Source of the DNA: an uncultured Actinomyces sp. | Lineage (GTDB): Bacteria > Actinomycetota > Actinomycetes > Actinomycetales > Actinomycetaceae | DNA length: 64,000 bases | Direction: 5' to 3' | NCBI GenBank assembly: GCA_964616925.1 | Contig: CAZTTD010000002.1 | Location: 810 to 64,809, forward strand | Shown here: positions 1 to 64,000 of the stretch, one piece after another | Layout of the letters: each line of letters starts with the position of its first letter | Position numbering within the stretch: position 1 is the first letter of the stretch | Position numbers and translations under genes: made by a program | The notes under the pieces: model-generated | Databases searched by the model: none | What the model was told of the DNA's origin: nothing | The model's input: only the letters and a program-made list of their open reading frames with translations

Positions 1-353
1 ACATCAGCGGCTTCAAGTGTGGATTCCTCAACCGAATCCGCGTAGTACTCACCCAGACCATCCAGTGTTGGACCGCGCTGGACCTCAACGCCAAGGTTTG
101 GAACTTCAGCGAACTCAACGGTGCAGTTGGGCTCAGCGTAGATAGCTTCTGAGACGTCCTTGCCCACCTTCGCGGCATCCACGTCAAACGCGGCCACGAT
201 CTTCACGCTGTCCACGTCGTAGTCACCGAACTGCACGTGCATGATGCCCGGGATCTTGTCGCCATCCTGCGCGTCTTTGTAGTACGTGAGGCCTTGAACT
301 AGGGATGAGGCGCAGTTTCCTACACCTACGATTGCTGTGCGAATCTCGCTCAT
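1..353 (-). CDS. ino1: myo-inositol-1-phosphate synthase, N-terminal part (gene continues past window start)
   Basis: Reverse translation from the ATG at 351-353 gives [47 protein letters not shown]..., the conserved Ino1 N-terminus with its [13 protein letters not shown] motif. A PadR gene lies directly upstream, as in mycobacterial Rv0046c-Rv0047c. Confidence 0.85.
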
Positions 354-409
354 TCGGCTTCCTTTGTGTCTTGAACGTGACGTCTTCTATCGGGGTTTGC
401 GTAACGTCT

Positions 410-991
410 CTATACGGATTCTCTTGTCGGTCCGGACGCTTTTTCCGGATAGGGTTTGTCGGATTGGATTAACTGATCAATCCATTCCAGTTCGCTTTGA
501 GCCTGCTGACTGTCCAGCTCCGCCTTTGAGCGGATCCAGAAATCATTGGATTCTTTTCCTTCGCGTCCTGCTTCCGCGCGGGCCAAGACCTGCTCCCGGC
601 GTTCCATTAGTAGCGCCAGACGCGTCGCCGGAGTCGCTTTCGACATCAAGCCCATAGTTAGCGGCAAAGAGTCATCATCCACGGCGGCGGTTGCAAGTGA
701 AGAAACCAAAAACTCCGAACCCACTGGCGTTATTTGGTAAGTCACCTGTTTACGGGTGCTTTTCGGCGCATCCTTCTTATCGGGGCGGCGCGGCCCGTCG
801 GAACCATCGGAGATCACGCGGATCAATCCACGCTCCTCCAGCCGGTGTAGCGCAGGATAGAGGGAACCAAAAGACAGTCGGCGCAGGGGGCCCAGGTTTC
901 GCGAGAGCAACTTGCGCAACTCATACCCGTGCAGCGGATGCTGAAGTTCGCCAAGAATGGCAAGTTCCAGCATGCTGGAGCGAACGCCCAC
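410..991 (-). CDS. PadR family transcriptional regulator
   Basis: 193-aa ORF. LELAILGELQHPLHGYELRKLL...FGSLYPALHRLEERGLI is the PadR winged-helix signature. It is co-oriented with ino1. Confidence 0.85.
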   Translation of the reverse strand: MGVRSSMLELAILGELQHPLHGYELRKLLSRNLGPLRRLSFGSLYPALHRLEERGLIRVISDGSDGPRRPDKKDAPKSTRKQVTYQITPVGSEFLVSSLATAAVDDDSLPLTMGLMSKATPATRLALLMERREQVLARAEAGREGKESNDFWIRSKAELDSQQAQSELEWIDQLIQSDKPYPEKASGPTRESV

Positions 992-1094
992 CGCGCCCTC
1001 GTCTCTTGAGACAACAACTAACGAGGTTCACAGTAGCAAAAATGTATCGTCGCGACATATCACGCCGATATTAGGCGCATCACAAGGGCGTTGT

Positions 1095-1173
1095 GGGGCG
1101 AGGGCGGCGGCGACGCGGGGCGAGGGCGGCGGCGACGCGGGGCGAGGGCGGCGGCGACGCGGGGCGAGGGCGG
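1095..1173. repeat. 22-bp tandem repeat GGGGCGAGGGCGGCGGCGACGC x3.6
   Basis: Three perfect units read directly (1095-1116, 1117-1138, 1139-1160) plus a partial fourth. Intergenic between padR and the SprT-like gene. Each unit carries the over-represented CGAGGGCG 8-mer. Confidence 0.9.
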
Positions 1174-1229
1174 ACGGGCCGGGCAAGCTCCGTGAACGTC
1201 TAGCGTTTGGATTCGAGGACGATCCGCAC

Positions 1230-1751
1230 CTACTTCCGCGAGCGCCCCCGTCTGATCCGCGCCAATTCCTTCGCGTAGCTGCCCGTCGGCGCCGTTGGGT
1301 GGCCATTTCGGCTCCAGTCAAGCACTAGGTCTTCCCGGAATGACCGCGAGCATTTCCCACACGACACCACCCTTCTTGGCATCGAATGCAGCCGCTTCAC
1401 AAGCCCGCACTGTCGACATGTGCCAACCCACGGCTGAGGTGGGGTAGGTAGCGTTGCGGGTAGCAAGGCCCGCGGTGTGGCGCCCAGCGACCGCGCAACC
1501 TTTTTCCAGTACGCATCATGGTTGTGCGCCGGTCCCGCAAGGGCGTGCGCGACCTCGTGTAGCACCACGTCTTTCATGGTCGAGGGCGGGTAGATCTCAG
1601 CCAACGTCCTCGAAAACGTGATCTTCTTGGCCCCGTGTACGCACTGGCCGGCGCGCCTTTTCGCGCGGTCCCAGCCGACGCTCCAGTCTGTTAGGCCGTG
1701 CTTGTCCAGCGATTCGCGGGCAAACCCAAGCACATCAAAGTTTTCCATCAC
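1230..1751 (-). CDS. SprT-like zinc metalloprotease domain protein
   Basis: 173-aa ORF with an HEVAHAL (HExxH) motif and a C-terminal CxxC...CxxC zinc ribbon (CRQCG...SCGKCS). Its start overlaps the hrpA stop (ATGA at 1748-1751). Confidence 0.75.
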   Translation of the reverse strand: MMENFDVLGFARESLDKHGLTDWSVGWDRAKRRAGQCVHGAKKITFSRTLAEIYPPSTMKDVVLHEVAHALAGPAHNHDAYWKKVARSLGATPRALLPATLPTPPQPWVGTCRQCGLVKRLHSMPRRVVSCGKCSRSFREDLVLDWSRNGHPTAPTGSYAKELARIRRGRSRK

Positions 1752-4700
1752 GCACTCTCCAACGTTTCCAGCCGTCGCAGCAGCCTGGGCGCCGAAACGC
1801 GTCCCGACGTGCCAAGATCCTGGGCGAACAAAGAGACACGCAGCTCCTCCGCCGCAGACATAATCCCCTCCAGTTCGAGGGCGTGCGCGGCCGAGTAAGG
1901 CCGGGCTTCCAGACGCGCCTGCGCCTCAGCGAGGGCGGCTTCAACCTCCCGAATCGTCTTCTCATTTGCCAGGTCGCGCGACAACTCCTTGGCGCCACGC
2001 GCCCCCCTCTCCACGCGACGGGCGTCCGCAAGCAGATAACGACTCACGTGTGGTGCAATGAGCAGGGAGTTTCTGCCCAGATAACCGTCCTGGAAAATTG
2101 ACTTCGCGTGGTTGCGGGCCGCGCGGGTGACGCGCTTGTACGTGTCCTGAGGGTGGTTCGCCAAAGCCTCTTCCAACCGTGCGTAGGCCTGAACTTCGGT
2201 GGTTACGCGGGTGAGGACCTGATAGACCTCGTCCTCGAACAAATCACGTAAACTGTCCCTCAACTGCACGTATGATTCTTGGTCGCGTACCGTGTGGGGC
2301 GTAACGTCCTTGCGGCGCAGCAGTTGCCGAAGCGCGGCGACCTGCGCGTCCGCCACCAGCGAGGGCGTGTCCGGATACGGCGAGCCCGCCAGCAGCAGCG
2401 CCTGATTCCCACTCCACCGGCTGGTGATCCGCCCGGTCTCCAACGCAAGATCAGCTAGCAGGAGCGCCGCAAGACCGTCCGCGAACTTGGCGTTCGCCTC
2501 ATCCCGCGTGGGGAGGATTTGGACAGAAACGGTCGCGTTGGGGGCAACTTTTTGCGTGACGAGGGCGGGGTATCCGCGCACCCGCAACCCGCGCGCATCG
2601 GTGGCCTCCACGACTTGGGGAAGGCCCTCTTGCGGGAGTTGGTCCAGTTTCGAGGTGACTAGGCCCGCACCAAGTTCCGGCGGTGTCGTCCTCGCAGAGA
2701 CGCCCCCCGCCGTGCCCCCAGCGCCGCTTCTCGCCGTGCCCGTGCCGGGGCCTCCAGGAGGGCCGTCAGCAAGTCCCGCATCGCGTCCGCCGGCAGGTCC
2801 TGCACCACGTCCGCCGGCAGGGCCCGCCGCTCCCTTGGCGCGAGCCGCCTCCAGGGCTTCCTTCACGCTTGACTGGAGCGCCCGCGTCGATTGCCCGCGG
2901 AACCGTTTCTGCAGGCGAATCAGGGAGTCGTCCGCCCCCAAAATCGCACCATTGTCGTCCACCACCCGGAAACCCATCTTGAGGTGCGCGGGAAGGCTGG
3001 CATGCGCCGCCGCAAGGTCGGAGGGGGCCAGGTCGATGCCCGTCCGCCCTCGGACCGCGCGTGCGAACTCTTCATCAAACGTCCGTGCTCGTATGCGCTT
3101 GCGGGACGCGGCCCGCGGGCTGTCTTTGGGGGGCGAGGGCGGTGTTGTCGAGGGTGGCGGGCCCGCGGGTGGCACCGGTGTCGAGCGTGGCGGGCCCGCA
3201 GATGGCGCCGGCGTTGAGGACGATCGGGCCGAGGCCGCCGGCGTGGTCGAGGCCGGCCTGTTCGAGGACATCCGCATAGACCCGCTTTGCGCCCCCCAAC
3301 TCTGCAGTCGCGCTAGCGACGCCTCCAGAGAGTACGGGTTCGACGTGTCACCGTCAGCGCCCGAGCCGCTGCCTCCGCCGTCGGTTTTGCCGCCCCCGAC
3401 AGCACCGCCGTCGACAACAGCGCCCTCGCCCCGACCCCCTTGTCCGTCCGTCCCGCTGTCTCTGCCGGTCCCACTGTGTCCGGCAGGTTCGTCTACCAGA
3501 CGCTCCCGCTCTAAGGTGGCCGCGATTTCCTTTCCCGTCTGCGTCGCGGGCGCCAAGAACCGCCGCTTGGCTTTAGGAAGCCCGCGGATCATGGCGACGC
3601 ACAGGTCTTCCAGCAGCCCCGGCACAAGCCAGTCGAAACCCGTGTCCTGGACGCGCCCAAGGGAGGATAGGGGGATCGTGATGCTCACACCGTCCTCGTT
3701 CGCACCCGGATCAAACGCGTAGGAGACCGCCAGCTTCAGGTCGCCCTGCTCCCACGTCTGCGGGAAGGCCGACGGGTCCGCCAGGGACGCGGCCGGCAAC
3801 AGGTCCTCAAGATGGTAATCCAGCAGGTGCGGCGCCTCCGTCACCTTACCCTTCCACCACTTCCCGAACGAGGCCGCCGATGTAATATACGCGGGCACCC
3901 GCGCGTCGAAGAACCGATAACGCACCGCCTCATCCGGCACGAGGGCGGGGTCACGCATCCTCTCCGACAGGCGCTCCGCCTCCGCCATGACATCCCGGTT
4001 GCGCTTCATAAACGCTAGGTGGTTGTCACGCCAAGCACCCTCCACAAGGGCGTGGGTGATGAACATTTCGCGGGCCAGGGCGGATGCGGTGAGGTTCGCA
4101 CCGAGCTGAGTGTTCAGGCCGGTTCTGCGCGCGGTGTCCAGTTCGTCGACCAGCTGGCTGCTCAACTGGTTTTCCATCTGCGCGGTTGCGCCCGCGACAG
4201 ACCCCAACCCCGAACGGGACCAATCTTTCCCAAGGATCGTCTCCTTGAGCGAGGCCAACGGCACCTGGCGGTCGGCGACCAGGGTTAGGCCGTAGAGCAT
4301 CACGCGCTCGTTCACCACGGCGCTGCCCTTCGCCCTAGACCAGGTTGGTTCGGAATACGACTTCTTCACCAGGTTCTGGGCGTACTTCTCTATCCACTCC
4401 GGCTTCACACCCGCAACGGTGCGGGCAAACAGGCGGGAGGTCTCCACCAGCTCCGCCGCCATCACCCAATCCGGACGTCTGCGCTTCAGGGTGGAACCAG
4501 GCCAGATCGTGAACCGGGAGCCGCGCGTGCCGGCGTACTCCTTCTTAGGCTCATCCCAGGAACCAACGTTGGAAAGGAGGCCGGAAAGGATGGAACGGTG
4601 AATCTCCTGTGCATCCACTGCCTTGGCGCTGCGACCGTAGTCCAACACGGCGCTTATTACAGGGTTCTGTTCTTCCCGGTGTGCGTCAATGAAAGAGCGG

Positions 4701-9213: not shown

Positions 9214-9216
9214 ACC

Positions 9217-10170
9217 ATGTGCGGAAGATTCACGATGTTCAGCGATGATGCTGAGTTGGTGTCCCTGTTCGACATCGATGTCCTGGAGGGGGAGCATCAG
9301 GCGGCGTATAACCAGGCGCCCTCCCAGCTCATCCGCGCGGTGACGGCGAACGTGCCTCGGGAGGAGTTGGGCGAGGGCGACGCGGGCGCCGTTCCTGGCG
9401 GCCAAACCCCGGGTGACCAGGGTGAACGTGGGGGTGAGATCGAGGGCGAGGGCGAGGCGCGCGCCGTGGCAGCTTCCGAAACGAGGCGGCTTGGGCTCCA
9501 GCAGTGGGGTTTCGTTCCGTCTTGGGCGAAGGAGGGGTTCCGCCCCCTGATCAATGCGCGTTCCGAAACGGTGACCTCCAAGCCGGTGTTCCGGGGTGCG
9601 GCTTCGCGCCGCCGCTGTCTGGTGCCAACCAACGGTTATTTTGAGTGGCGGAAGATGCCCGATGGTAAGAAGCAGCCGTACTTCTTCAGTCTGGCCGACC
9701 GCGAGGGGCGCGCGGCCCCTGTGGGGAGCGAGCCGATTATGGCGATGGCTGGCATCTGGGAGTACTCGGAGGAAGGTGCCCCCACCGTCGCACTGCTCAC
9801 CAGGGCGGCCAGTGAGCCCCTAGCGTTTATCCACAATCGGATGCCGCTATTTGTGCCCAGTTCTCTCTGGGGAGCGTGGATGGACCCTGGTCTTGTGGAT
9901 AAGGAGACGGTGGCAGAGTTGATCCGAGAGCTCCCGCCACCACCGCTGATACCCCGTATGGTGAGACCCGCGGTTGGGAATGCGCGTAACAACTTTCCTG
10001 GGCTGATCGACCCGTATGATCCGGCGGTTTCTGCCCTGGATTCCTCTGGCCGGGCGGCTTCCGCGCTGGACTCTTCTGGCCGGGCCCCGGCTTCCGCCCT
10101 CGACCCGAATCTGGGTGGCGCGAACGGTGTGGCTGGTGGGCAGGGCGTCTTACCGTTGGACGGATTGTGA
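9217..10170 (+). CDS. SOS-response-associated peptidase (SRAP/YedK family), with acidic insert and C-terminal repeats
   Basis: It starts MCGRF (catalytic Cys2). Further on are ...SWAKE...INARSETV..KP.FR and NGYFEW. An insert (EELGEGDAGAV...GEGEA) and a SALDSSGRA tandem near the C-terminus are present. Confidence 0.85.
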   Translation: MCGRFTMFSDDAELVSLFDIDVLEGEHQAAYNQAPSQLIRAVTANVPREELGEGDAGAVPGGQTPGDQGERGGEIEGEGEARAVAASETRRLGLQQWGFVPSWAKEGFRPLINARSETVTSKPVFRGAASRRRCLVPTNGYFEWRKMPDGKKQPYFFSLADREGRAAPVGSEPIMAMAGIWEYSEEGAPTVALLTRAASEPLAFIHNRMPLFVPSSLWGAWMDPGLVDKETVAELIRELPPPPLIPRMVRPAVGNARNNFPGLIDPYDPAVSALDSSGRAASALDSSGRAPASALDPNLGGANGVAGGQGVLPLDGL

Positions 10171-10965: not shown

Positions 10966-11251
10966 GTTCGTCCCTCGATTCTTTGAGTAGCGCCAAGAGT
11001 TGACGCACCGGAGCCCATGTCCGTGGACGGCCCGTGAGGTGCGCGCGGAAGTGGCCCCCGTGAGAGTATCAAATGTGGCGGTCGGCCATTAGCGCGGTGC
11101 TGGTTGGATGCGGCACGCTGTTGGTCTAGTCTTCACGGCCGCCCCCGTTCCCGCTCGTCTCCGTACCGGCACGCCCTCGCCCGGCGCGCGTGTGGACCGC
11201 CGACGGCCCAGACGAAGGGTTGGTTACGCCCTCGCCCCGATGTCTTCCTAG

Positions 11252-12016
11252 TCACCCATCGGGTATCGCCTGTTCCGGGCATTTCGCAAGTGTTTGGGCG
11301 AGGGCGTCGTGCTCCGACCGTGTTACCGCCAAGCCCCACTTGTACTTGACGATGACTTGCCGCGCGGCATATTCGCAGTGCACCTTCTTATTCGTGGGGA
11401 CCCACTGGTCAAACGTCGCTGCCCCCTTCTCTTGGTTGGCGTCACCATCCACGGCCAGCAGGTTCAGCGGGTCATTCGAAAACTGCAGGCGCTGTTCCGT
11501 TTCCCATTGCCACGCGCCAGAGTTCCACGCGTCAGCCAACGCAACAACATGGTCGATCTGCACCATCTGGCTGGTCGTCTCTCCACGTTGAAACTGGATG
11601 GTGGTGGCGGTATAGGGGTCATCCAAAATGCCCGATTCCACAACACAGTCGTTGGTCCCGCCCCGGTACACGACTTCCGTCAGGTCGCGCGAAAGGATTT
11701 CGTTCCTGGTGGAGCACCCGTCGCCATCAAGGTCCCCCCATCCATCCCCGAACTGAGAGCGAGAGTAAGGTGGCGCCTCCCCGCTGCCCCCGTCGGCCAC
11801 TATTTCAAGGGCCGCGAGCTGCCGTTCGGCTTCGGTCGAGGGCGTTTTTGGGCTGGTGCCACCACCGGCGGCTTGGAAACCAGACAGCATCGACGGGAGG
11901 AACAGCCACACGGCGAGAGCGAGCGTCGCCAGCGCGACCATTCTCAACAGCAGCGGCTTCCCTCCGCGGCCAGCACGGGAGCCGGCTCGGCGTCCGGGAG
12001 TCGAGGGCGTGTTCAT
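11252..12016 (-). CDS. membrane-anchored/secreted DUF1524 (HNH-like, GmrSD C-terminal type) nuclease
   Basis: N-terminal TM or signal sequence. Motifs: GDGCSTRNEILSRDL, QIDHVVALADAW, NLLAVDGDANQEKG. Confidence 0.75.
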   Translation of the reverse strand: MNTPSTPGRRAGSRAGRGGKPLLLRMVALATLALAVWLFLPSMLSGFQAAGGGTSPKTPSTEAERQLAALEIVADGGSGEAPPYSRSQFGDGWGDLDGDGCSTRNEILSRDLTEVVYRGGTNDCVVESGILDDPYTATTIQFQRGETTSQMVQIDHVVALADAWNSGAWQWETEQRLQFSNDPLNLLAVDGDANQEKGAATFDQWVPTNKKVHCEYAARQVIVKYKWGLAVTRSEHDALAQTLAKCPEQAIPDG

Positions 12017-12263
12017 CTAACCATTGTGCCCGGGTCGGGGCGCGGGTTTCGTTACCGGTGGCAAATTGGGGATAGATCGATGATTTCCACAGGGCGTGCG
12101 CTGGACACCGCACGCCGTGCAGAATGTTTCGCCGGGCGCACGCAAGACACCTCGAGGACACGGCCTCGTACTCGCCCTCGTCCCCGTACTGGGGCTCATT
12201 CCCGTGCCCGTACTCGTCCTCGTCCTCGTCCAAACCTCTCCGTCGTCATCTCCGTCGCCATCA

Positions 12264-13091
12264 TCACGCCACATGTTTCGGCGGACCGTTTCGCCGTTTT
12301 CGGCGCGCCAGTTTTTCTTGGATCTGTCTGGTTTGATCCGCCATCACGTGGTTGAGCCAAGATCGCCTAGTGTCATCGGGATGAAGCCGACTTATCCAGG
12401 CCGGCGGCTTAACAAAGGGAATACCTTTTTGCATTTGGATTTCCCAACCACTGGTATCGATGTTCGCGTGGTGGGATCGACAGAGTAATGCTCCGTTGTC
12501 AGTGTGTGTCGGTCCTCCATGGGAATGGGGGGTGACGTGGTGTACTTCGCACCATGCGGCCGGGGTGTTGCACCCCGGAATCACACAACCACCATCCCGC
12601 AGAGAAATTGCCCGACGTTGATTGGCAGTGAAAAGGCGCTGTGGTGACCCGAGTCCCGTAATCTTCCCCAAGCTGTTCCGCACGACCGCCTGAATATTAG
12701 CGTTGCAGGACAAGGAATGAACACTGCGCATAGGAATAGGAGTTGGATCCCCATTATGGTCAATCAGCCAGCCCACGGCATTGGCATTGTTGAGATTCTC
12801 CTGTTTGACCTCTACGACAATGGTGGCGCTGGCGCCTTGCAGCACAGGAAGGTCCCGGTCTGCCAACGTAACACTCAGAGCCATCGCCAACGCATCGTGA
12901 CGTTTCTGGCCCGGACTGCGCTCATCGGTTGGATCGGAACCAAGGTCTACGCCCTCACCCGAGGGATCAGGGCCAAGACCTCCGTCCTTGCTCACAGAAT
13001 CGGACCCAAGCTCTACGCCCTCATCCGTGGTTTCAGCAGCCATGGCCGGAGCGTCTCCCGTGTCGTAGTCGATGCCAGTGGCGGCCTGCAC
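12264..13091 (-). CDS. HNH endonuclease of the actinobacterial DUF222/13E12 type, apparently N-terminally shortened
   Basis: LRDGGCVIPGCNTPAAWCEVHHVTPHSHGGPTHTDNGALLCRSHH is the HNH signature. The protein is only 275 aa with an acidic repeat N-terminus, whereas family members are usually about 400-500 aa (from memory). Confidence 0.7.
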   Translation of the reverse strand: MQAATGIDYDTGDAPAMAAETTDEGVELGSDSVSKDGGLGPDPSGEGVDLGSDPTDERSPGQKRHDALAMALSVTLADRDLPVLQGASATIVVEVKQENLNNANAVGWLIDHNGDPTPIPMRSVHSLSCNANIQAVVRNSLGKITGLGSPQRLFTANQRRAISLRDGGCVIPGCNTPAAWCEVHHVTPHSHGGPTHTDNGALLCRSHHANIDTSGWEIQMQKGIPFVKPPAWISRLHPDDTRRSWLNHVMADQTRQIQEKLARRKRRNGPPKHVA

Positions 13092-15032: not shown

Positions 15033-15219
15033 GTTCGTCAAGGACGTCGCAAATACGCGGGCGAGGGCGATCGGCGAGCGCGCGGGCGCGCTGATCGGGT
15101 ATCGCGGGCGCGCTGACCGGGTGCCACGGGCGCGCTGACCGGATGTCTGTTGCACTGTTTGAGTGATGCCCCCTTTTTTCATGGCGGATGCTGGCACAGA
15201 CGGCAGATAGGAAAAACCC

Positions 15220-15329
15220 CTCGAAACTACATAGCGGGGCCAAAACTACATAGCGGGCAAAAATCACAGCGTTTTTATTGCTATTTTGCGTCCCCGTATG
15301 TAGTTTCGGCCCCGCTATGTAGTTTCGAG
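15220..15329. repeat. 110-bp near-perfect long hairpin (38-nt arms)
   Basis: The left arm is CTCGAAACTACATAGCGGGGCCAAAACTACATAGCGGG (15220-15257). The right arm is CCCGTATGTAGTTTCGGCCCCGCTATGTAGTTTCGAG (15293-15329). Each arm contains AAACTACATAGCGGG twice, and the loop is AT-rich. Confidence 0.85.
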
Positions 15330-15372
15330 AGAGGTTAGGCTCGTCTCGGCCCGTTTCAAGGTCTTCTTTGGC

Positions 15373-16170
15373 GGCTCTTTATAAAAGGGGCTGTGGGCAG
15401 GTTAGTTGGTGGCGGGTTAGTGGCTTTGTTGGTGCCTTGGCAGCCCTGTGCCTTTGGCTCCCAAGCGTCAGATATCGCCAAGTTGGCTCCAGATGGGCCG
15501 AGATGGCATGGCACGGATCAAGTTGGCTCTAGATGGGCCGAGATGGCATGGCACGGATCAAGTTGGCTCTGGATGGTCCGAGATGGCATGGCCATCTTGG
15601 GGGTTCGCGTGCCATCTTGACTATTTCTGTGCTTGACCGCGTGCTGCAGGCTGCGCGTGAGGCTTGGGTGGGCAGGTTGAACACAGGTTGTGTCAGTTGA
15701 ACACACGATGTGTTGATCGGACGCACGTTGTGTGCGTGCACAAGGTGCGTTGGACTAACACGCCTAATCGTTGTGCCCAAAATGCAACGATGTGCCCGTC
15801 GGTGAACGTTGTGCCCGAAAACAGGCCGTTCAGCTAACTGTGCCCAAAGTGCAACGATGTGCCCGTTGGTGAACGTTGTGCCCGGGAACATCGTTAGTTT
15901 CGTGCCACATCGTTAGCTCCACGACGTTCGCTGGCGATTTGTGAACGTTGTGCCCGAAAAGGGGCCGTTCAGCTAATCGTTGTGCCCAAAATGCAACGTT
16001 GTGCCCAAAAACAGGCCGTTCAGCTAATCGTTGTGCCCAAAATGCAACGTTGTGCCCAAAAACAGGCCGTCCAGCTAACTGTGCCCGCCGTCGAACGCTG
16101 TGTCACGAACCAACCAACCAGGCCCAAGAGGGACCGACTGACCCTTCTACAGCCTCTTTCATGAAGAGCC
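15373..16170 (+). mobile_element. MITE-like non-autonomous element, copy 1 (about 800 bp, no ORF)
   Basis: The left TIR is GGCTCTTTATAAAAGGGGCTGTGG (15373-15396). The reverse complement of the right TIR is GGCTCTTCATGAAAGAGGCTGTAG (16147-16170); 20 of 24 positions match. The 8-bp direct repeat TCTTTGGC flanks both ends (15365-15372 and 16171-16178). The interior consists of tandem repeat arrays. Confidence 0.75.
15764..16105. repeat. tandem array of about 51-bp units carrying 12+ copies of (C)GTTGTGCCC
   Basis: GTGCCCAAAAACAGGCCGTTCAGCTAATCGTT / GTGCCCAAAATGCAACGTT alternate repeatedly. The array lies inside MITE copy 1. Confidence 0.85.
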
Positions 16171-16264
16171 TCTTTGGCCATGGTGGCGGGCCAAATTGGT
16201 CCCTGCACGGCTCAGATCGTCGGTATCGTCTTGGATCGGCCCCTATAGCTATGCGACAGCGGGG

Positions 16265-16470
16265 GCGCGAACGAAACCGAGCATAAGGGCGGCAGTGAGT
16301 GCGCGAACGAAACCGAGCACAAGGGCGACCGCGAGCGTGCGAACGAAACCGAGCACAAGGGCGACCGCGAGTGCGCGAACGAAACCGAGCACAAAGGGCG
16401 ACAGCGAGCGTGCGAACGAAACCGAGCACAAAAACGCCCCGGCACGGAACGAAACCGGACCGGGGCGCCC
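16265..16470. repeat. 36-bp tandem repeat G(C/T)GCGAACGAAACCGAGCACAAGGGCGACCGCGAG(C/T) x about 5.5
   Basis: Units start at 16265, 16301, 16337, 16373 and 16410. The last partial unit merges into the pntB terminator. Confidence 0.9.
16430..16467 (-). terminator. intrinsic terminator of pntB
   Basis: On the minus strand the sequence reads CGCCCCGG-loop-CCGGGGCG followed by TTTTT (stem 16460-16467 / 16435-16442, T-run 16430-16434). It lies 13 nt after the pntB stop. Confidence 0.75.
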
Positions 16471-16479
16471 TCGTACTAA

Positions 16480-17967
16480 TTACGCGTTCTGCTTCACCGC
16501 CGACAGAATGTTGTCCACAGACGCCTTCGCGTCGCCGAACAGCATGTGCGTGTTCTCCTTGAAGAACAATGGGTTCTGCACGCCCGCGTAGCCAGTGGCC
16601 ATGGAGCGTTTGAAAACGATGACGTTCTTCGATTCCCACACCTTCAGAACCGGCATGCCGGCAATGGGGGAGCCCGGCTCTTCCGCGGCTGGGTTCACCG
16701 TGTCGTTGGCCCCGATGACTAGGACGGTATCAACGTCCGCGAAATCATCGTTGACCTCATCCATTTCTTTCACGATGTCGTAGGGAACCTTCGCCTCAGC
16801 CAACAGGACGTTCATGTGTCCAGGTAGGCGACCTGCGACCGGGTGCACGCCAAACTCCACGTCAACACCCATTTCGCGCAGCGCGGTCGTTAGCTCCGCG
16901 ACCGGGTACTGCGCCTGCGCAACCGCCATGCCGTAACCCGGGGTGATCATCACCTTGCGTGAACCGGCCAGCATCGCGGCAACTTGCTCGGCGTTGATTT
17001 CTTGGTGCTCCCCGTCCTCGTCCCCAGAAGCCTCCGTGGACTCTCCAGTTCCAAACCCACCCAGGATCACGGAAATAAAGGAGCGGTTCATGGCGCGGCA
17101 CATGATGTAGGACAGGAACGCACCGGATGAACCGACCAGCGCGCCGGTGATGATCAGCAGGTCGTTATTCAGCATGAAACCGGCGGCCGCAGCAGCCCAG
17201 CCGGAGTAGGAGTTCAGCATCGACACGACCACCGGCATGTCGCCGCCACCGATCGCAGCAACCAGGTGGACGCCCAGTGCGAGGGCGATGATCGTCATCA
17301 AGATGAACGGAACCCACGCGCCCCAGCCGTGGCCAACCGCGATGAACCAGCCCATCAGGACAATGGAGACGATGATGGCGCCCAGGTTCAGCCAGTTACG
17401 GCCAGGCAGCATCAGTGGCGCGCCGGAGATCTTCCCCGACAGTTTCAGGTAGGCAACCACGGAGCCGGTGAGTGTGACAGCGCCGATGAAGACGCCAAGG
17501 AAAACCTCTCCAAGGTGGAAGCCGCCCAGCGCAATCGCTTCGGCGTCCGGGGCCAGGAAAGAGTTGTAGCCAACCAGGACGGCCGCAAGGCCCACGAAGC
17601 TGTGCAGCAACGCGATCAGCTCCGGCATCCCGGTCATCTCAACCTTTGCGGCTTTCCACAGGCCAATGCCCGCGCCAATCAGCATGGCAACAGCGATCAG
17701 CAGCGCGGTTGTGAGTACACCGCGTCCCGGCCCGGATGACAGTGCCGCCAAGATGGTGGCCGCAAGCGCGATCCCCATCCCGATGATTCCCATGTTGTTT
17801 CCGTGGCGCGACGTCTCATGGGAGGAGAGACCACGCAGAGAAAGGATGAACAGGATGGCGGCCACAATGTACGCCAAGGTGACGACGTGGCCGGTCCAGT
17901 AGGAGGGGCTGGAGAACGTGTCGGCTGCCAGTGCGGGAAGAACAGTATTCATGATCAGTGCATTCAT
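16480..17967 (-). CDS. pntB: NAD(P) transhydrogenase subunit beta
   Basis: 495-aa ORF with an N-terminal polytopic domain and a C-terminal dIII NADP(H) domain ([37 protein letters not shown]). Confidence 0.95.
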
Positions 17968-19520: not shown

Positions 19521-19652
19521 GTAAAATCCTTCAATTTTGTTAGGAGATGACCCAAGCCAACTATAGGCAACATGCGCCACACCTGCTGTCAAGATCCTCG
19601 GTGTTGTGCGACTCTCTTTCCCTTTTGCAGCGCCGGCGGGCTACGCTGTAAG

Positions 19653-19753
19653 TAGCCACGGGGCCCCTGATGCGGGGGTGAGAGGGGAACAGCAGTTCCC
19701 GACCGTCGAACCTGATCCGGTTAGTACCGGCGTAGGAAGGCATTCCGCGGCTA
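19653..19753 (+). promoter_or_regulatory. TPP (THI-box) riboswitch
   Basis: GGGGUGAGAGG ... ACCGUCGAACCUGAUCCGGUUAGUACCGGCGUAGGAAGG matches the conserved THI-box core. P1 is UAGCCACGG / CCGCGGCUA. It sits directly upstream of a ykoE-type S-component. Confidence 0.9.
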
Positions 19754-19789
19754 TGAAAAGTGGGTTTCAGTTAGTCCGTGGAGGAGAAC

Positions 19790-20383
19790 ATGACCGCTAA
19801 TAGATTCAGTTGGCGCGTTGTTGACATAGTTACCGCAGCCGTTTTGGGGACCGTCTTTGGTCTGGTCTTCTTTTTGTGGAATCAGGTGGGTTACGCAGCT
19901 TTTTCGGCGCTGGATGCACTGACTCCTGGAGTTGGCGGGATTGTGTCTGGCGTCTGGCTCATGGGTGGCCCAGTCGGGGCGCTAATCATTCGTAAACCGG
20001 GCGCCGCCATCTTTGTTGAGACCTTGGCTGCCGTTGTTTCCATGGGCCTTGGTTCCCAGTGGGGACCCGAGGCGCTGGTCGCGGGTCTCATGCAAGGCGC
20101 CGGCGCAGAAATCGCGTTCGCACTATTCCGCTACATGAAGTACACACCCGCAGTTGCCGCACTGGCCGGCGGACTGGCGGGTGTTGGCGCCATGCTCTTA
20201 GAAGGCGTCACCAGCGGAAACTTCGCCAAGTCCCTTCTGTTCAACGTCACCTACTGGTCGGCAACCATCATCTCCGGCGTCGTCATTGCGGGACTCGGCT
20301 CCTATTATCTGGTCGTTGCATTAGCAAAGGCCGGTGCCCTGGGACGTTTCGCCGCGGGGGCGGAACTTCAGAAGAGGGTTTAG
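19790..20383 (+). CDS. ykoE: ECF transporter S component, YkoE-type (thiamine/HMP)
   Basis: Roughly 197-aa six-TM protein whose pattern fits YkoE. GGAGGAG lies 4 nt before the ATG at 19790. It is downstream of the TPP riboswitch. Confidence 0.8.
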   Translation: MTANRFSWRVVDIVTAAVLGTVFGLVFFLWNQVGYAAFSALDALTPGVGGIVSGVWLMGGPVGALIIRKPGAAIFVETLAAVVSMGLGSQWGPEALVAGLMQGAGAEIAFALFRYMKYTPAVAALAGGLAGVGAMLLEGVTSGNFAKSLLFNVTYWSATIISGVVIAGLGSYYLVVALAKAGALGRFAAGAELQKRV

Positions 20384-20387
20384 TGAC

Positions 20388-39814: not shown

Positions 39815-39840
39815 TTTTTTGAAGCGCGGTTAGGCCTCGC

Positions 39841-42287: not shown

Positions 42288-42410
42288 GTGGACGGTGACA
42301 AGTCGCCCTCGCCCTCGCCATGACATTTGGGAGTGGCGGAGCGGACTATGATTGGGCGGTGACCCGCTTTGGCGGGGTGGAACTGTTGTCGAGGGCGCCA
42401 AGGCGGGGAC

Positions 42411-43805: not shown

Positions 43806-43926
43806 GGGGCGACCGTCGCTTCGGTTTCCTTCGGTTCGTTTCGGTTTTGTTTAGGGGCGAGGGCGGTTTTTGTCACAGCCCACGTTTATCTTCGAGGCCG
43901 CGGTCGCGCGGTACAATGTAGGTTCT

Positions 43927-44128: not shown

Positions 44129-44437
44129 GGCGCTTCTGTAAGGGGTTGTAGATGAAACCAGTTGGGCCGGTGCCTGCTTAAGTTGGACGCGAGCTGCGCC
44201 TTATACGCAGCCTGTAGCACACGGTCAACCACAGAAGTAGTCAAGATGGCATGCCAACCCCCAAGATGGCTACGCCATCTTGGCCCCTCTAGAGCCAACT
44301 TGGCGTTGACATCCGCGCCCCAAGAAGACTTCCAGGGCCATCCCACTAGTTGGCCGGGCGCCACTGGCGATGAGGCATTAGCCAGCCGTGAATTATCGTG
44401 AATCATGTGGTCCGCACAGCCCCTTTTGTGAAGCGCC
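44129..44437 (-). mobile_element. MITE-like element, copy 3 (about 309 bp, inverted relative to copies 1 and 2)
   Basis: The termini are GGCGCTTCTGTAAGGGGTTGTAG... and ...CACAGCCCCTTTTGTGAAGCGCC, with a perfect 8-bp terminal IR GGCGCTTC. The element is flanked by the direct repeat CCATAACC (44121-44128 and 44438-44445). It contains one GATGGC(G/A)TAGCCATCTTGGGGGTTGGCATGCCATCTTGAC module. Confidence 0.8.
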
Positions 44438-55090: not shown

Positions 55091-55102
55091 CCCCCCGGTA
55101 TT

Positions 55103-55180
55103 GCAGCCGCTCGGAACCTTCGGGCACTGCAGCCGCCCGGAACCTTCGGGCACGGCAACCGCTCGGAACCTCCCGCCGCG
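55103..55180. repeat. 26-bp tandem repeat GCAGCCGC(T/C)CGGAACCTTCGGGCAC(T/G) x3
   Basis: Units at 55103, 55129 and 55155 (the third is degenerate). The array starts 13 nt after the upstream gene's stop. Confidence 0.85.
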
Positions 55181-55440
55181 GGCTTGCGCCAGCTGTAATG
55201 CGGCACCACTTGCACCGCAAAAGTCGGGCGTCCTCGCTGTTTTTGGCGAGGGCGCCCGCCAGCACTTTAAACGGTGCTTCTGAAGTGGCTTTTCTGAGCT
55301 GGCTCTTCTGAGATGGTTCTCCTGTCGCAGCTCTTCTGTCATGGAATGGGCTCTAGTGGGTGAATCTGGTGTGCGTCAGTGATCTGTCTAGGGCTGTCGC
55401 AGGTGCCAGTGGATGTCCTTTCCACCCCCTGTAGCGAGGC

Positions 55441-60707: not shown

Positions 60708-60851
60708 GTTTAGTCGCGGCAGGAAACCCCACCGTAGTTATCGAACCTAACTAAACATTAACTATCATCAAAAGAAAACGGTGCGGACAGTGTCCTTTTG
60801 CTCATTAGTGCACACGCATCACACACGTTCGACAACTTCACGGTACAAGTT

Positions 60852-61868
60852 CTAGTACATAAATGTCCAGCTGGTGAAAGGGCGTTTCAGCTGCGGGAAG
60901 ACATCTAAGAACTCCCGCGCGGTTCTGGGCGCGGGCTCCCCCAGCGAAGCTGAGATCATACTCACGACATCACCTGTGGTAACGCCAAGTTCGCGGAGCT
61001 GCTTCAACGTGACCGCGCCGTCCCTCTTGGCAAGGCGGGAGCCCGTGGGTCCCAATACAAGCGGAACATGTCCATACGTGGGCTCCGAACAGCCCAGTTG
61101 AGCCGTCAAATAAGAGTGGACGGGCGCGGACGCCAACAGGTCATCTCCGCGGACGATCTGGTCCACACCCATGGCTACGTCGTCCACCACCACAGCCAGG
61201 TTGTACGCGTGTTCCCCGTCCCCTCTTTTTAGGACAACGGAGTCGACCGGTCCCGTGTATGGCCCGGAATACATGTCTTCTACGGTCCACTGGGGGATCG
61301 AGGGCGCAAGTCGCAACGCGGGCTTCAACCCGCGTGAGGCCATCTCTTCCCTCCTCCGCCCTCGTTCCGCATCACTCAAGTGCGCGCACGTCCCCGGGTA
61401 ACGGCCCGGCGGGGAATGGGCGGCGGAAGCGGCCTCCCGAATGTCCTTGCGGGAGCAGTAACACTCAAATACCAGCCCCTTGTGACGGAGTTCATCCAGG
61501 GCGGCGTCGTAGAGTTCCAGACGCTCACTCTGGGTGACGATTTCACCGTCCCAGTCGATTCCGATTTCTTCGAGGTCGCTGATCTGCCCCGAAGGGTCCC
61601 TTGCGCGGCCCCGGTCTAAGTCTTCAAGGCGTAGGTAGAAGTCGCGGCCGGTTGAGCGGGCCGCTGCCCACGCCAAAAGGGCCGTGCGCAGGTTGCCGAC
61701 GTGGAGATCCCCGGTGGGGGAGGGTGCGTATCGTCCGGCACCCATGAGGGCCTCCAATTCTTCGTTTCGAGGGCGTCGTGCGTCACGAAACCCCAGCTTG
61801 TCCACACTACGGACGCCCGGTTTTGGCGTGTAGGCATCTACTACATCTATTATCATCGGAGAAACCAT
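60852..61868 (-). CDS. gluQ: tRNA glutamyl-Q(34) synthetase
   Basis: GRYAPSPTGDLHVGNLRTALLAW (HIGH-type), RLEDLD and LAKRDG (KMSKS-like). No anticodon-binding domain. Confidence 0.88.
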   Translation of the reverse strand: MVSPMIIDVVDAYTPKPGVRSVDKLGFRDARRPRNEELEALMGAGRYAPSPTGDLHVGNLRTALLAWAAARSTGRDFYLRLEDLDRGRARDPSGQISDLEEIGIDWDGEIVTQSERLELYDAALDELRHKGLVFECYCSRKDIREAASAAHSPPGRYPGTCAHLSDAERGRRREEMASRGLKPALRLAPSIPQWTVEDMYSGPYTGPVDSVVLKRGDGEHAYNLAVVVDDVAMGVDQIVRGDDLLASAPVHSYLTAQLGCSEPTYGHVPLVLGPTGSRLAKRDGAVTLKQLRELGVTTGDVVSMISASLGEPAPRTAREFLDVFPQLKRPFTSWTFMY

Positions 61869-61950
61869 CTAGAGCAGCTGAGAGACCTGGCTCCGTGAAG
61901 CTGCAGCAACCAGCAAACGCAAGGTGCTACGGCCAGGACCGATGGAGGAA
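61865..61950 (+). promoter_or_regulatory. candidate SAM riboswitch (SAM-I clan, short SAM-IV or SAM-I/IV-like form) upstream of metNIQ
   Basis: GAGAGACCUGGCUCCGUGAAGCUGCAGCAACC-AGCAAACGCAA-GGUGCUACGGCCAGG aligns with the SAM-I core GAGGGACUGGCCCGAUGAAACCCGGCAACC-loop-GGUGCCAAUUCC. Possible P1: CCAUC (61865-9) with GAUGG (61941-5), overlapping the GGAGGA SD of metN. Confidence 0.45.
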
Positions 61951-61952
61951 AG

Positions 61953-62942
61953 TTGATTGAACTAGTGGACGTAGCGAAGGTCTACGACATACCTGGCGCC
62001 ACACCCGTGGTTGCCCTGGATGACGTAAACCTTTCTATTCCAGCGGGTGCCATCCACGGAATAGTGGGGCAGTCAGGCGCGGGTAAGTCCACGCTGATTC
62101 GGTGTTTGACGGCGTTGGAGCGGCCGACCTCGGGCAAAATCGTTGTCAACGGGATCGACATGACCGCGTTGGACGGGTCAGCATTGCGTTCTGCAAGGCG
62201 CAACATCGGCATGGTTTTCCAAGCGCCGAACCTCCTTGATTCACGTACCGCGGCGGCCAACGTTGCGTTCCCTCTGAAACTGGCAGGTGCCGATAAGAAG
62301 GAAGCCGCGCAGCGTGTGCAGGACCTGCTGACCGTGGTCGGCTTGGGGGACCGCGGTAAGTCCTACCCCGCCCAGTTGTCAGGCGGGCAGCAACAGCGTG
62401 TCGGGATTGCACGCGGCATGGCGACCAACCCGCCGGTGCTGCTGTGTGATGAGCCCACCTCCGCCCTCGACGCGAACTCCACAAAGCAGGTCATGAGTCT
62501 GCTGCAGAAGCTCCGGGATGAATCTGGCGTGACGGTCGTGATCATCACCCATGAGATGGAAGTGGTCCGTGACTACTGCGACTCCGTGACTTTGCTGCAG
62601 CACGGTCGGGTGGTGGAATCCGGCCCCATTGAAGAGGTCCTACAAACTCCAGACTCCGCGCTGTCAGAGGACCTGGTTCCGCGACCCAACATTGATGGGG
62701 TTGAGATACCTGCGGGTAGCGCCCTCTTAGACATATCCTTCACGTCGCATCCGGGCGTGCCCACGGGAGCGACAGTGTTGAACCTGGTCGCCTCCCTAGG
62801 GGCAGATGTTGCTGCCGGTCGTTTTGAATCGATAGGGCAGATCCAGGTGGGACGACTTGCGATCACGGTGCCGAAATACCATGCTCGGGCAATTCGCGGG
62901 CAGTTGGAACGAAATGCCATCCTTGTAAGGGAGTGGGTGTGA
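61953..62942 (+). CDS. metN: methionine ABC transporter ATP-binding protein (with C-terminal NIL domain)
   Basis: GQSGAGKST, LSGGQQQRVGIARG and LLCDEPTSALD motifs. TTG start. Confidence 0.92.
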   Translation: MIELVDVAKVYDIPGATPVVALDDVNLSIPAGAIHGIVGQSGAGKSTLIRCLTALERPTSGKIVVNGIDMTALDGSALRSARRNIGMVFQAPNLLDSRTAAANVAFPLKLAGADKKEAAQRVQDLLTVVGLGDRGKSYPAQLSGGQQQRVGIARGMATNPPVLLCDEPTSALDANSTKQVMSLLQKLRDESGVTVVIITHEMEVVRDYCDSVTLLQHGRVVESGPIEEVLQTPDSALSEDLVPRPNIDGVEIPAGSALLDISFTSHPGVPTGATVLNLVASLGADVAAGRFESIGQIQVGRLAITVPKYHARAIRGQLERNAILVREWV

Positions 62943-63649
62943 TGGGCGCATTTGTGAACCTGCTTGTCGCAGCCCCCGGTGGCCCCAGGTGGGGGGACAA
63001 CCCCGCCATTCAGCAGAAGTTTTGGCCCGCGGTTTGGGAGACCTTGCTGATGGTCGGCTGGTCGGGCGTCCTAACGGTTGCGTTGGGTCTGCCCCTTGGA
63101 TTGCTGCTGGCGTCCAGCTCCCGTCAGGGTCTGAAGCCACGACCGGCCTTGAACCAGGTGGTTGGCGTTGTCGTGAACGTGGTGCGTTCCTTCCCCTTCA
63201 TGATTTTGCTGATTGCCCTCTTCCCGTTCACGCGTCTTGTGGTTGGCACCGCCCTCGGATGGAAAGCCACCGTTGTGCCACTGGTGATTGGCGCGGTTCC
63301 GTTCTTCGCGCGTTTAGTGGAAACAAACGTGAACGCGGTCAGTCCTGGAAAGATTGAGGCAGCCCAGATGATGGGCGCCTCCAACACGACGATTGAGTGG
63401 ACCGTGCAGACACGGGAGGCACTTCCGTCCCTAGTCCAATCGGTGACCGTCCTGCTCATCACGTTGATCGGATACTCCGCGATGGCGGGGGCCGTTGGCG
63501 GTGGTGGACTTGGCGCGCTTGCAATCAACTACGGCTACAACCAATGGCAGGATGATGTGATGATCCTTACGGTGATTGCGATCATCGTTATTGTGCAACT
63601 GATCCAAATGGTGGGCGACATGATTAGCCGGTTGGTGGATCACCGCTGA
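62942..63649 (+). CDS. metI: methionine ABC transporter permease
   Basis: Five-TM MetI pattern with IEAAQMMGAS (EAA loop). The ATG at 62942 overlaps the metN stop; GTG 62933 is an alternative start. Confidence 0.9.
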   Translation: MGAFVNLLVAAPGGPRWGDNPAIQQKFWPAVWETLLMVGWSGVLTVALGLPLGLLLASSSRQGLKPRPALNQVVGVVVNVVRSFPFMILLIALFPFTRLVVGTALGWKATVVPLVIGAVPFFARLVETNVNAVSPGKIEAAQMMGASNTTIEWTVQTREALPSLVQSVTVLLITLIGYSAMAGAVGGGGLGALAINYGYNQWQDDVMILTVIAIIVIVQLIQMVGDMISRLVDHR

Positions 63650-63815
63650 GGCGCCGCCAGCCGGAGTTACTTCCAAAACATGTACTCGGCACAATTGTCC
63701 CAATCTTTCGTTCCCGGATAATCCGGGCGAACCCGATACCCAACTGAATGCCCACATCCGGGCAAAACCCGCTTTCCTGGCACACCGGGAAAGCAAAACA
63801 AATGGAGGAAATCCC

Positions 63816-64000
63816 ATGCGTTCTATTCGTAACTTTGCCGCTATCGGTGCGGCAGCCGCCCTCGTACTGGCAGGCTGCTCATCAGGCGCCGGCGACAAGC
63901 AGTCCACGGAAGCAGAAATCAATGATGAGGCCACAGCGGAGGCGGAAAACTCCGACGTCCAGGTCCTCACCATTGGCGCTTCCCCCAGCCCGCACGGCAA
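63816..64000 (+). CDS. metQ: MetQ/NlpA family lipoprotein, N-terminal part (continues past window end)
   Basis: The ATG at 63816 follows GGAGGA. MRSIRNFAAIGAAAALVLAGCSS contains a lipobox. Operon context with metNI. Confidence 0.8.
   Translation, partial: MRSIRNFAAIGAAAALVLAGCSSGAGDKQSTEAEINDEATAEAENSDVQVLTIGASPSPHG

Follow-up and report, generated by a model that had tools for sequence, protein, structure and literature searches.

A stretch of 64,000 nucleotides from an uncultured Actinomyces sp. (GenBank assembly GCA_964616925.1, contig CAZTTD010000002.1, positions 810 to 64,809; the whole stretch is called the window below) is crowded with copies of one octamer, CGAGGGCG, which reads CGCCCTCG where it lies on the opposite strand. 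This raises the question of whether the octamer reflects the codons of a GC-rich genome or is a word on which some process acts directly and, if so, which process that is. We read the word, in the form CGAGGRCG, as a lineage-specific signature at the DNA level of a small clade of Actinomycetaceae, made up of the host, a relative that is 81% identical to it and, more weakly, the Actinomyces minihominis group. The evidence comes from this one 64-kb window and from 8-22-kb loci of relatives, all of them from a single syntenic region.

Abundance of the octamer

Searched exactly on both strands, the window yields CGAGGGCG 88 times: 50 copies lie on the + strand and 38 on the − strand, the latter appearing as CGCCCTCG on the + strand (all starts are listed in Table 1). 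One hundred dinucleotide-preserving shuffles gave a mean of 5.46 copies (s.d. 2.6, maximum 14), which puts the observed excess at about 16-fold, and Markov models of order 1, 2 and 3 expected 5.4, 3.9 and 3.7 copies. The initial annotation of this DNA, made from the letters by eye, had proposed strong over-representation across the whole window, and the exact counts bear this out; its coordinates were correct to about 10 bp, with 2570, 3950 and 6937 becoming 2560, 3940 and 6927. It had also suggested a 5th-order Markov check. Models of order 5 and 6 expected 40 and 74 copies and were dropped as uninformative because the 6- and 7-mers on which they are conditioned are almost wholly copies of the motif itself (CGAGGGC occurs 91 times, GAGGGCG 111 times), and such nulls absorb the signal. 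Protein-preserving codon shuffles were used in their place; the annotation had allowed for an observed/expected ratio near 1 under a codon-aware null, and the ratio that we found is about 9.

Among all 8-mers of the window CGAGGGCG ranks first by a wide margin, and the other high-ranking words are its own shifted sub-words. The first independent word to follow is CGAGGACG, a variant with A at position 6 (25 copies), and control words of reversed or permuted CGAGGGCG composition occur 2-9 times each. The density is 1.4 per kb for CGAGGGCG and 1.8 per kb when the A variant is included (88 + 25 copies in 64 kb).

The octamer in genes and in non-coding DNA

Genes were called with a simple codon-likelihood script, which is crude but agrees with the Pfam matches, and yielded 45 genes. 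They contain 67 copies of the octamer, found in all six reading frames, and a further 21 copies lie outside them. On the sense strand of genes CGCCCTCG occurs 42 times and CGAGGGCG 25 times, close to the 43 to 26 first estimated, and this asymmetry arises because more Ala-Leu than Glu-Gly dipeptides are on offer (266, with the octamer in 11%, versus 76, with the octamer in 22%).

The simplest explanation for such a word in a GC-rich genome is a codon, dipeptide or codon-context artefact generated by the codon strings NNC-GAG-GGC-GNN and NNC-GCC-CTC-GNN. Two frames do hold 47 of the 67 coding copies (30 in xxC-GCC-CTC-G and 17 in xxC-GAG-GGC-G), and a generic effect of this kind exists: in the Corynebacterium loci of 65-69% GC (among L013-L030) CGAGG[A/C/T]CG reaches about 1-2 copies per kb, and in GC-rich phage contigs (viral loci L033-L152) 3-4 per kb, almost wholly in the frame NNC-GAG-GNC-G, so that codon context can mimic a degenerate motif. 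However, when synonymous codons were shuffled 500 times within each gene, keeping the protein and the per-gene codon usage, only 7.4 ± 2.8 copies were expected in coding DNA, with a maximum of 16, against the 67 observed. The initial annotation had arrived at a codon-aware expectation of about 10 and had held that the enrichment exceeds codon bias, and both statements agree with this result. Shuffling the order of codons in genes gave 5.2.

The same conclusion follows from the details of codon context. The remaining four frames hold 20 copies, and even frames that call for rare codons are occupied (CGA-GGG-CG at 4 of 9 compatible sites and CGC-CCT-CG at 3 of 6). A GAG codon is preceded by C in 62 of 576 cases overall (11%), but in 18 of 28 (64%) when it is followed by GGC, and the codon pair GCC-CTC is seen 45 times versus 12 expected from codon usage. 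Taking together all positions at which the encoded peptide is compatible with the octamer, 67 of 216 (31%) are filled by it, versus a median of 3.6% and a maximum of 11.6% for 40 permuted 8-mers. The G variant is not enriched in the Corynebacterium loci or in a sister clade described below.

Non-coding DNA gave the same answer. We defined a strictly non-coding set by removing from the window the called genes, open reading frames (ORFs) with Pfam matches, some further long ORFs without a Pfam match, generous N-terminal extensions and tRNAs. The remaining 9,797 bp (57.6% GC) contain 15 copies, or 12 if a tandem array at 1095-1173 is counted once, versus 0.59 ± 0.84 in Markov-1 simulations, an excess of about 25-fold. 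That the motif also occurs in non-coding DNA had been noticed at the outset. It had been considered as well that all GAG-GGC and GCC-CTC pairs might be enriched alike, regardless of the flanking C and G, with no intergenic excess; the flanks are instead specific and the intergenic excess is pronounced. The enrichment of the octamer therefore acts at the DNA level, beyond codon usage. Codon context is excluded as its main cause, and we leave that explanation hardly any probability; it accounts only for part of the variants with C or T at position 6.

Density varies among genes, rising with GC content (rho 0.47) and falling with the codon-optimisation score (rho −0.34), and few copies are found in PntAB and in membrane permeases. 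Lower density in constrained proteins is the direction reported for the uptake signal sequences (USS) of Pasteurellaceae.

The exact unit

The unit is better written CGAGGRCG, with G much more frequent than A, preceded by a G/T-rich 5' flank, its fullest form being GGGGCGAGGGCG. Position 6 tolerates A, as CGAGGACG has 25 copies versus about 4 expected; 19 of these are in coding sequences, where the synonymous null gives 6.1 (about 3-fold), and about six (25 minus 19) lie outside called genes, where the rough expectation is below 1. Variants with C or T at this position are about 2-fold up, in coding sequences only and nearly all in a single codon frame. They are not counted in the word because the same NNC-GAG-GNC-G effect is seen in the phage contigs and the Corynebacterium loci. 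For the same reason a fully degenerate reading, CGAGGNCG, was dropped: in those sequences words with A, C or T at position 6 are generically common (1-4 per kb, in one codon frame), and what rises above this level in the window, outside genes as well, is the G form and, to a lesser degree, the A form.

On the 5' side G is present at −3 and at −2 in 51 of 88 copies each, and C is nearly excluded (2 of 88 at −2 and 5 of 88 at −1). Intergenic copies are mostly GGG(G)CGAGGGCG, a 12-mer with 13 occurrences. Outside positions −3 to −1 the flanks have background composition, and for this reason the octamer is not part of a dispersed repeat element, be it an interspersed repeat, a miniature inverted-repeat transposable element or a repetitive extragenic palindrome. 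The initial statement that flanking bases are not conserved is thus right further out and needs correction on the 5' side.

On the 3' side, 88 of the 100 occurrences of CGAGGG in the window continue with CG, the six variants at positions 7-8 totalling 4 copies versus about 15 expected, and AGGGCG without the leading CG is near background (65 versus about 57). The depletion of near-misses weakens when the other loci of the clade are pooled, and we regard it as real only tentatively. Among the variants at their positions, the transition products CGAGGGTG and CGAGGGCA show the weakest depletion, and TGAGGGCG and CAAGGGCG are in excess; by position, transition variants are the least depleted ones at 7 and 8 and 1.2- to 2.8-fold enriched at 1 and 2.

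Host lineage and distribution among relatives

PntA encoded in the window is 96% identical to that of another uncultured Actinomyces metagenome-assembled genome (MAG; L001), 85-88% identical to those of A. minihominis and two further MAGs (L002, L003 and L010) and 62-79% identical to those of other Actinomycetaceae and Corynebacterium. The host is an uncultured Actinomycetaceae species near A. minihominis. Near-identical short contigs (99.9-100%) are present in several public metagenome runs, and they held no polymorphisms by which gain or loss of the octamer could be polarised.

A comparison with relatives had been suggested as a check, and it located the enrichment in one clade. Measured against the synonymous null, the observed and expected numbers of the G variant are 67 and 7.1 in the window, 31 and 3.8 in L001, 19 and 3.4 in L002, 18 and 4.5 in L003, and 10 and 3.1 in L010. 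In a PntAB tree these five enriched lineages are monophyletic, and their sister clade, L004-L009, is unenriched (for example, 2 and 1.8 in L004; 2 and 0.8 in L009). No G-variant enrichment was found in L004-L009, L011, Actinobaculum or the 18 Corynebacterium loci, and in all of the latter and in Actinobaculum the raw density of the octamer is 0.05-0.3 per kb.

The window and L001 show the full syndrome, with copies in all frames and in non-coding DNA. Nearly all copies of L002, L003 and L010 are in the two main frames, and in L010 and L002 the A variant is about as frequent as the G variant. Schaalia vaccimaxillae DSM 15804 (L012), which lies outside both clades, has all four CGAGGNCG variants at 3-4 times the synonymous null, with 60 copies in 21.5 kb. 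Most of these share one codon frame, A is preferred at −1, and the pattern may reflect either a related dialect or codon context alone. A scan of viral contigs for pairs of motifs returned generic high-GC contigs, none with CGAGGGCG as a clear outlier among 8-mers (L149 is marginal), and identified no phage of the clade.

Conservation and turnover of sites

Between the window and L001, whose nucleotide identity is 81%, 18 of 29 alignable sites are intact versus 5.6 expected from frame-class-matched 8-mers (about 3-fold; binomial p = 5e-7), and GC-rich control 8-mers are conserved at 21%. At about 72% identity this excess is gone: L002, L003 and L010 keep 1 of 13, 2 of 17 and 1 of 11 sites of the window, which is background, and have their own copies elsewhere. 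At conserved Ala-Leu positions, sister-clade orthologues use other codons, such as T-GCC-CTG-G or GCT-TTA. The sites are thus maintained over moderate distances and replaced over longer ones. Conservation with respect to L001, turnover at about 72% identity and synonymous recoding together indicate that the copies came about for the most part through point substitutions, often synonymous ones, and that they built up chiefly on the branch that the window shares with L001.

Strand and spacing

The octamer shows no strand polarity. Judged from GC skew only, the window would lie within one replichore, and strand symmetry was tested in this 64-kb stretch and in the syntenic loci. CGAGGNCG is found 72 times on the + strand and 63 times on the − strand, while the cumulative GC skew rises steadily over 8-64 kb. 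Copies outside called genes split 11:10 by strand, and the five related loci are at about 1:1. By window half the strand counts are 32:19 and 18:19, and they track gene direction, not replication. From density and use of both orientations, the initial annotation had judged the octamer to resemble DNA uptake sequences (DUS) more than the polar Chi and FtsK orienting polar sequences (KOPS), and the 1.4-1.8 copies per kb and near-equal strands agree with that judgement.

Spacing is mildly clumped (coefficient of variation 1.2), with 21 gaps below 100 bp versus 11 expected. Some of the short gaps are due to doubles that overlap in a 6-bp register, and others come from a 22-bp tandem. A regular, USS-like spacing was dropped on the basis of this coefficient of variation; the periodicity of the cyanobacterial highly iterated palindrome HIP1, on a scale of 10-90 kb, exceeds the reach of a 64-kb window.

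What could maintain the octamer

These results require a force that is sequence-specific, acts on the DNA itself, is blind to strand, frame and coding status, fills a third of the permissive sites and is found in one small clade. By analogy with known systems, its most likely kind would be a self-tag for uptake or recombination like DUS and USS, a reading that we put forward tentatively. Some DNA-binding part of the uptake or recombination machinery would favour fragments that bear the word; alleles that chance to contain it would enter from dead kin and be recombined into the chromosome at a higher rate, a form of molecular drive that selection for self-DNA would possibly reinforce; and near-matches would steadily be turned into perfect copies as far as the protein sequence allows. 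The enrichment, its independence from codon usage, its presence in non-coding DNA, strand symmetry, clade restriction, excess conservation and synonymous recoding are observed here, whereas biased uptake or recombination as the force, and a receptor for the word, are inferred.

We favour this uptake reading because it fits the density, the strand symmetry, the restriction to a clade, the conservation followed by turnover, the synonymous recoding and the lower density in genes under the strongest constraint. The DUS of Neisseriaceae (GCCGTCTGAA and its dialects) and the USS of Pasteurellaceae (AAGTGCGGT core) are, like the octamer, short, asymmetric and lineage-specific, present at at least about 1 per kb on both strands, and found in genes, in several frames, as well as in spacers. 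Their density is on the scale of 1 per kb; their positions are shared by close relatives and replaced at larger distances, and they consist of a core with weaker flanking preferences. To our knowledge, good documentation of hyper-abundant short words in genomes exists for just three families, DUS, USS and HIP1, and the precedent lies in two of these three, DUS and USS, being uptake signals. A 2024 preprint reports that HIP1, too, raises the efficiency of natural transformation.

Several observations weigh against the uptake reading. Close inverted pairs are not in excess: with the six loci pooled, pairs within 100 bp comprise 52 direct, 23 convergent and 23 divergent cases, for which a random arrangement predicts 2:1:1. 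Nor are the copies concentrated in terminators, since terminator-like hairpins occur in the window at shuffle frequency and about three involve the octamer, while terminators hold about half of the uptake sequences of Neisseriaceae and Pasteurellaceae. The likeness to uptake sequences that was noted at first therefore extends to density and strand symmetry and stops short of these two features. At 90% identity, L003 and L010 show no excess conservation (5 of 10 sites versus a background of 45%). Density outside genes, 1.5 per kb, barely exceeds the 1.3 per kb inside; neisserial DUS are denser between genes. The strong form of the pattern is documented only for the window and L001, and as the related loci are all from the same syntenic region they provide no independent genome-wide sample. 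There is no com gene among the genes of the 64-kb window. Literature searches gave no report of natural competence or uptake sequences in Actinomyces, Schaalia or Actinomycetaceae, and uptake-enhancing sequences are known only from Neisseriaceae and Pasteurellaceae.

The octamer further differs from DUS and USS in length (8 bp, or up to 12 with the flank, versus 9-12 bp) and in its host, a Gram-positive actinobacterium without reported competence in which no ComP-like receptor is known. A full-text literature search with either orientation returned only unrelated papers and no published description. We do not file the octamer as a member of DUS/USS, as the terminator and inverted-pair feature is missing; biased uptake is its candidate function. 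That CGAGGRCG is the first DNA-uptake or self-recognition sequence outside the Proteobacteria, by which a Gram-positive Actinomycetaceae clade of gut or oral sites would preferentially take up or recombine the DNA of its kin via a putative receptor, with the recoding of about a third of all permissive positions as the consequence, is in our view somewhat doubtful.

The second explanation is a selected motif in the manner of HIP1, which an orphan DNA methyltransferase or an abundant nucleoid protein would recognise and which selection would keep at high density for a chromosome-wide function such as nucleoid structure or the marking of replication or repair. HIP1 (GCGATCGC, in cyanobacteria) has the same profile as the octamer: an 8-mer at about 1 per kb and at least 15-fold over-represented, in coding and non-coding DNA, whose sites are conserved above background between relatives and which is confined to one lineage. 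HIP1 recodes synonymous sites, is patchy among lineages and has a debated function. A purine-tolerant position 6 and a biased 5' flank are also what a protein recognition site would have. However, HIP1 is a palindrome that lies within the targets of two orphan methyltransferases and is quasi-periodic, whereas CGAGGGCG is non-palindromic, unlike most solitary-methylase targets as well, is mildly clumped rather than regular and has no known methylase link. The loss of conservation at 72% identity and in the L003/L010 pair argues against strong selection per site. We consider this explanation unlikely.

A third possibility, for which the initial annotation had also allowed, is that the word has no function and arises neutrally from a bias in repair or mutation that is specific to its sequence, in which very-short-patch-like correction or templated conversion would turn near-matches into it. 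Near-equal density in coding and non-coding DNA indicates the indifference to location that such a process would have, the window is short of near-misses on the 3' side, and site positions turn over fast between species. In very-short-patch repair (Dcm/Vsr, favouring CCWGG over CTWGG) a process at the DNA level could likewise enrich its target and deplete near-misses regardless of coding. The Dcm/Vsr bias at CCWGG is, however, well under 2-fold and specific to the deamination product, and the 16- to 25-fold enrichment seen here is an order of magnitude above the repair biases known to us. A deamination signature is absent, the transition variants not being the depleted ones, and a bias driven by this particular repair was rejected because at positions 7 and 8 transitions are the least depleted neighbours. 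The near-miss depletion also weakens once other clade loci are pooled, and sites are conserved 3-fold above background with respect to L001. Above-background conservation was taken by Xu et al. as evidence against neutral replenishment in the case of HIP1. On balance a functionless bias seems quite unlikely.

A Chi-like signal, a single-stranded octamer read by RecBCD or by a helicase-nuclease of the AdnAB/AddAB type that would switch degradation to RecA loading, is improbable. The octamer is G-rich, non-palindromic and of the length class of the RecBCD Chi (GCTGGTGG in E. coli, also 8 bp), is over-represented throughout core genes and is lineage-specific, as Chi is. Yet Chi is replication-polar, occurs about once per 3-5 kb and is few-fold enriched, whereas the octamer lacks polarity and has a copy about every 0.7 kb and an enrichment of at least 16-fold, a density several-fold higher and an excess far stronger than for any known Chi. 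E. coli Chi is about 75% co-oriented with replication, and we know of no Chi found for actinobacterial AdnAB. Identity with Chi was rejected on orientation, given the ratio of 72:63 over a stretch of rising cumulative GC skew and of 11:10 in non-coding DNA. For Pseudomonas, PMC5959072 gives GCTGGCGC as the Chi sequence. Among other polar words, KOPS, the SpoIIIE recognition sequences SRS and further skewed octamers of the architecture-imparting kind (GGGNAGGG and GAGAAGGG; read by FtsK and SpoIIIE) are also G-rich 8-mers with one degenerate position, and the extended form GGGCGAGGG is superficially like GGGNAGGG; KOPS are, however, more than 85% strand-skewed toward dif and much rarer, and this identity was dismissed since the octamer, at about 1:1, lacks strong skew (>80%) and the spacing of its G-runs differs by one base.

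Whichever force is at work, it must be strong and sequence-specific in this clade, because about 31% of permissive coding positions have been overwritten. The octamer would be a fourth hyper-abundant word, one that is asymmetric, lacks polarity, has no tie to terminators and belongs to a Gram-positive clade of actinobacteria, and DUS and USS each altered the understanding of gene flow and of self/non-self discrimination in their hosts. If biased uptake holds, competence is predicted in Actinomycetaceae, and the octamer placed on transforming DNA would offer a handle for genetics in a poorly tractable group. If instead a methylase or nucleoid protein recognises the word, or a new repair bias produces it, this would reveal a new mechanism that shapes genomes. 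In addition, the octamer is a sharp k-mer marker that could aid the metagenomic binning of the clade and the spotting of foreign DNA in its genomes.

Individual sites and gene content of the window

The positions of all copies and of the sites described here are collected in Table 1. The 22-bp tandem with four copies, the doubles at 9441/9447 and 42304/42310 and the T-runs beside the copies at 43857 (by exact search, 43858) and 55247 had all been picked out by eye, and all are present in the sequence.

Table 1. Positions of the octamer and of individual sites in the 64-kb window
Feature	Position	Strand	Description
CGAGGGCG, all starts	1099, 1121, 1143, 1165, 1581, 1876, 1930, 2360, 2560, 3134, 3940, 6561, 6927, 9372, 9441, 9447, 11299, 11837, 12002, 13920, 15062, 17280, 18263, 20492, 20664, 23347, 23391, 23886, 24636, 25225, 28471, 28549, 32530, 34874, 36432, 36962, 41414, 41938, 42390, 43858, 45257, 47304, 47403, 50070, 51362, 51934, 55247, 59373, 61299, 61768	+	
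CGCCCTCG, all starts on the + strand	994, 3045, 3421, 6702, 8913, 9071, 9141, 10095, 11172, 11227, 12173, 16466, 20395, 20972, 22164, 23016, 24064, 24507, 27889, 32554, 35466, 36297, 36636, 40362, 41501, 42304, 42310, 45017, 45296, 47331, 48468, 49204, 49863, 53546, 61357, 62462, 63250, 63857	−	motif on the − strand
Perfect 22-bp tandem GGGGCGAGGGCGGCGGCGACGC, 3.6 copies	1095-1173	+	four motif copies in the extended form GGGGCGAGGGCG; 100% matches, score 158; in the spacer between padR-like (410-991, −) and sprT-like (1230-1751, −) genes
Overlapping double CGAGGGCGAGGGCG	9441-9454	+	6-bp register; inside a SRAP-family gene
Three-copy cluster	11172-11306		11172 (−), 11227 (−) and 11299 (+), around the tauE-like/GmrSD_C-like spacer; the two spacer copies are GGG(G)CGAGGGCG
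Copy at the 5' foot of an intrinsic-terminator hairpin	16435-16473	−	copy at 16466-16473, hairpin 3' of pntB; CGAGGGCGCCCCGG...CCGGGGCGTTTTT; fold −42 kcal/mol
Copy inside pntB	17280-17287	+	sense C-GCC-CTC-G (Ala-Leu); kept in all five motif-clade loci
Convergent intragenic pair CGAGGGCG...CGCCCTCG	32530-32561		24 bp apart; inside a gene for an 889-aa protein with an LPG-synthase domain
Overlapping double	42304-42317	−	non-coding; begins 17 nt past the stop of a HAD-hydrolase gene (41343-42287)
Copy in extended form AGGGGCGAGGGCGG, then TTTTT	43858-43865	+	non-coding; 53 nt past the stop of a GlcNAc-2-epimerase-like gene, just before tRNA-Ser
Inverted A-variant/motif pair CGTCCTCG-N10-CGAGGGCG	55229-55254	+	non-coding hairpin with T-rich loop; the sole clear DUS-style inverted pair

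The tandem at 1095-1173 presents eight successive G-runs on the + strand and could form a G-quadruplex, and conspecific metagenome contigs end inside or beside it. Overlapping CGAGGNCG doubles number five in the window (9441, 12215, 23347, 42304 and 45011). The hairpin behind pntB, a terminator-like site at 16451-16435, holds one of the few octamer copies in a terminator. At position 17280 within pntB, sister-clade orthologues have CCAG(N)GC(G/A) or similar. Further convergent pairs are found at 47304/47331 and 45257/45296, and the number of such pairs does not exceed chance expectation. The gene for an HrpA-like helicase of 1681 aa contains 8 motif copies; several short in-frame tandem repeats (24-bp × 2.5, 33-bp × 2.2 and 15-bp × 2) lie in it at 2,769-3,425, at about residues 1120-1340.

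At 11,252-13,091 a GmrSD_C-like gene (the C-terminal domain of a type IV restriction enzyme) adjoins a DUF222-family gene; the octamer is not depleted there, with about nine CGAGGNCG in 2 kb. DUF222 genes are often mobile in Actinobacteria. In the 1.4-kb non-coding gap that holds the hairpin at 55229-55254, a 26-bp tandem × 2.7 (TGCAGCCGCTCGGAACCTTCGGGCAC) lies at 55,102-55,171, just 3' of a gene that ends at 55090.

The genes of the window are ordinary chromosomal ones, among them hrpA, pntAB, pheA, serS, a GluQ-RS-like gene, energy-coupling factor (ECF) and ATP-binding cassette (ABC) transporters, SRAP, sprT-like and three tRNAs; none is a rec, adn or restriction-modification methylase gene. 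A thiamine pyrophosphate (TPP) riboswitch at 19,648-19,755 lies upstream of ECF-type transporter genes (19778-22769), and an S-adenosylmethionine (SAM) riboswitch at 61,862-61,948 upstream of an ABC transporter operon (61953 onward).

A non-coding stretch of 1.45 kb between an Exo_endo_phos gene and pntB (15,050-16,470) is dense with repeat arrays unrelated to the octamer: a 22-bp unit × 2.8 (15081-15142), a 40-bp unit × 2.8 (15479-15592) and a 36-bp unit × 4.9 (16253-16431), the last of which reaches the pntB terminator. Between 15769 and 16057 the same stretch has ten same-strand copies of CGTTGTGCCC(AAAA), eight exact and two with one mismatch, with an iteron-like look. A second repeat family, with CAAGTTGGCTCT...GATGGC units, is found at 39,340-40,000, 44,242-44,282 and 15,591-15,619, and includes a 145-bp unit × 2.2 (39348-39668) followed by (GGAGCCGCAT) × 15.8 at 39841-39998. 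The 9-mer CAAGATGGC has 11 copies versus 0.74 expected, clustered in three non-coding loci apart from a lone copy at 60481.

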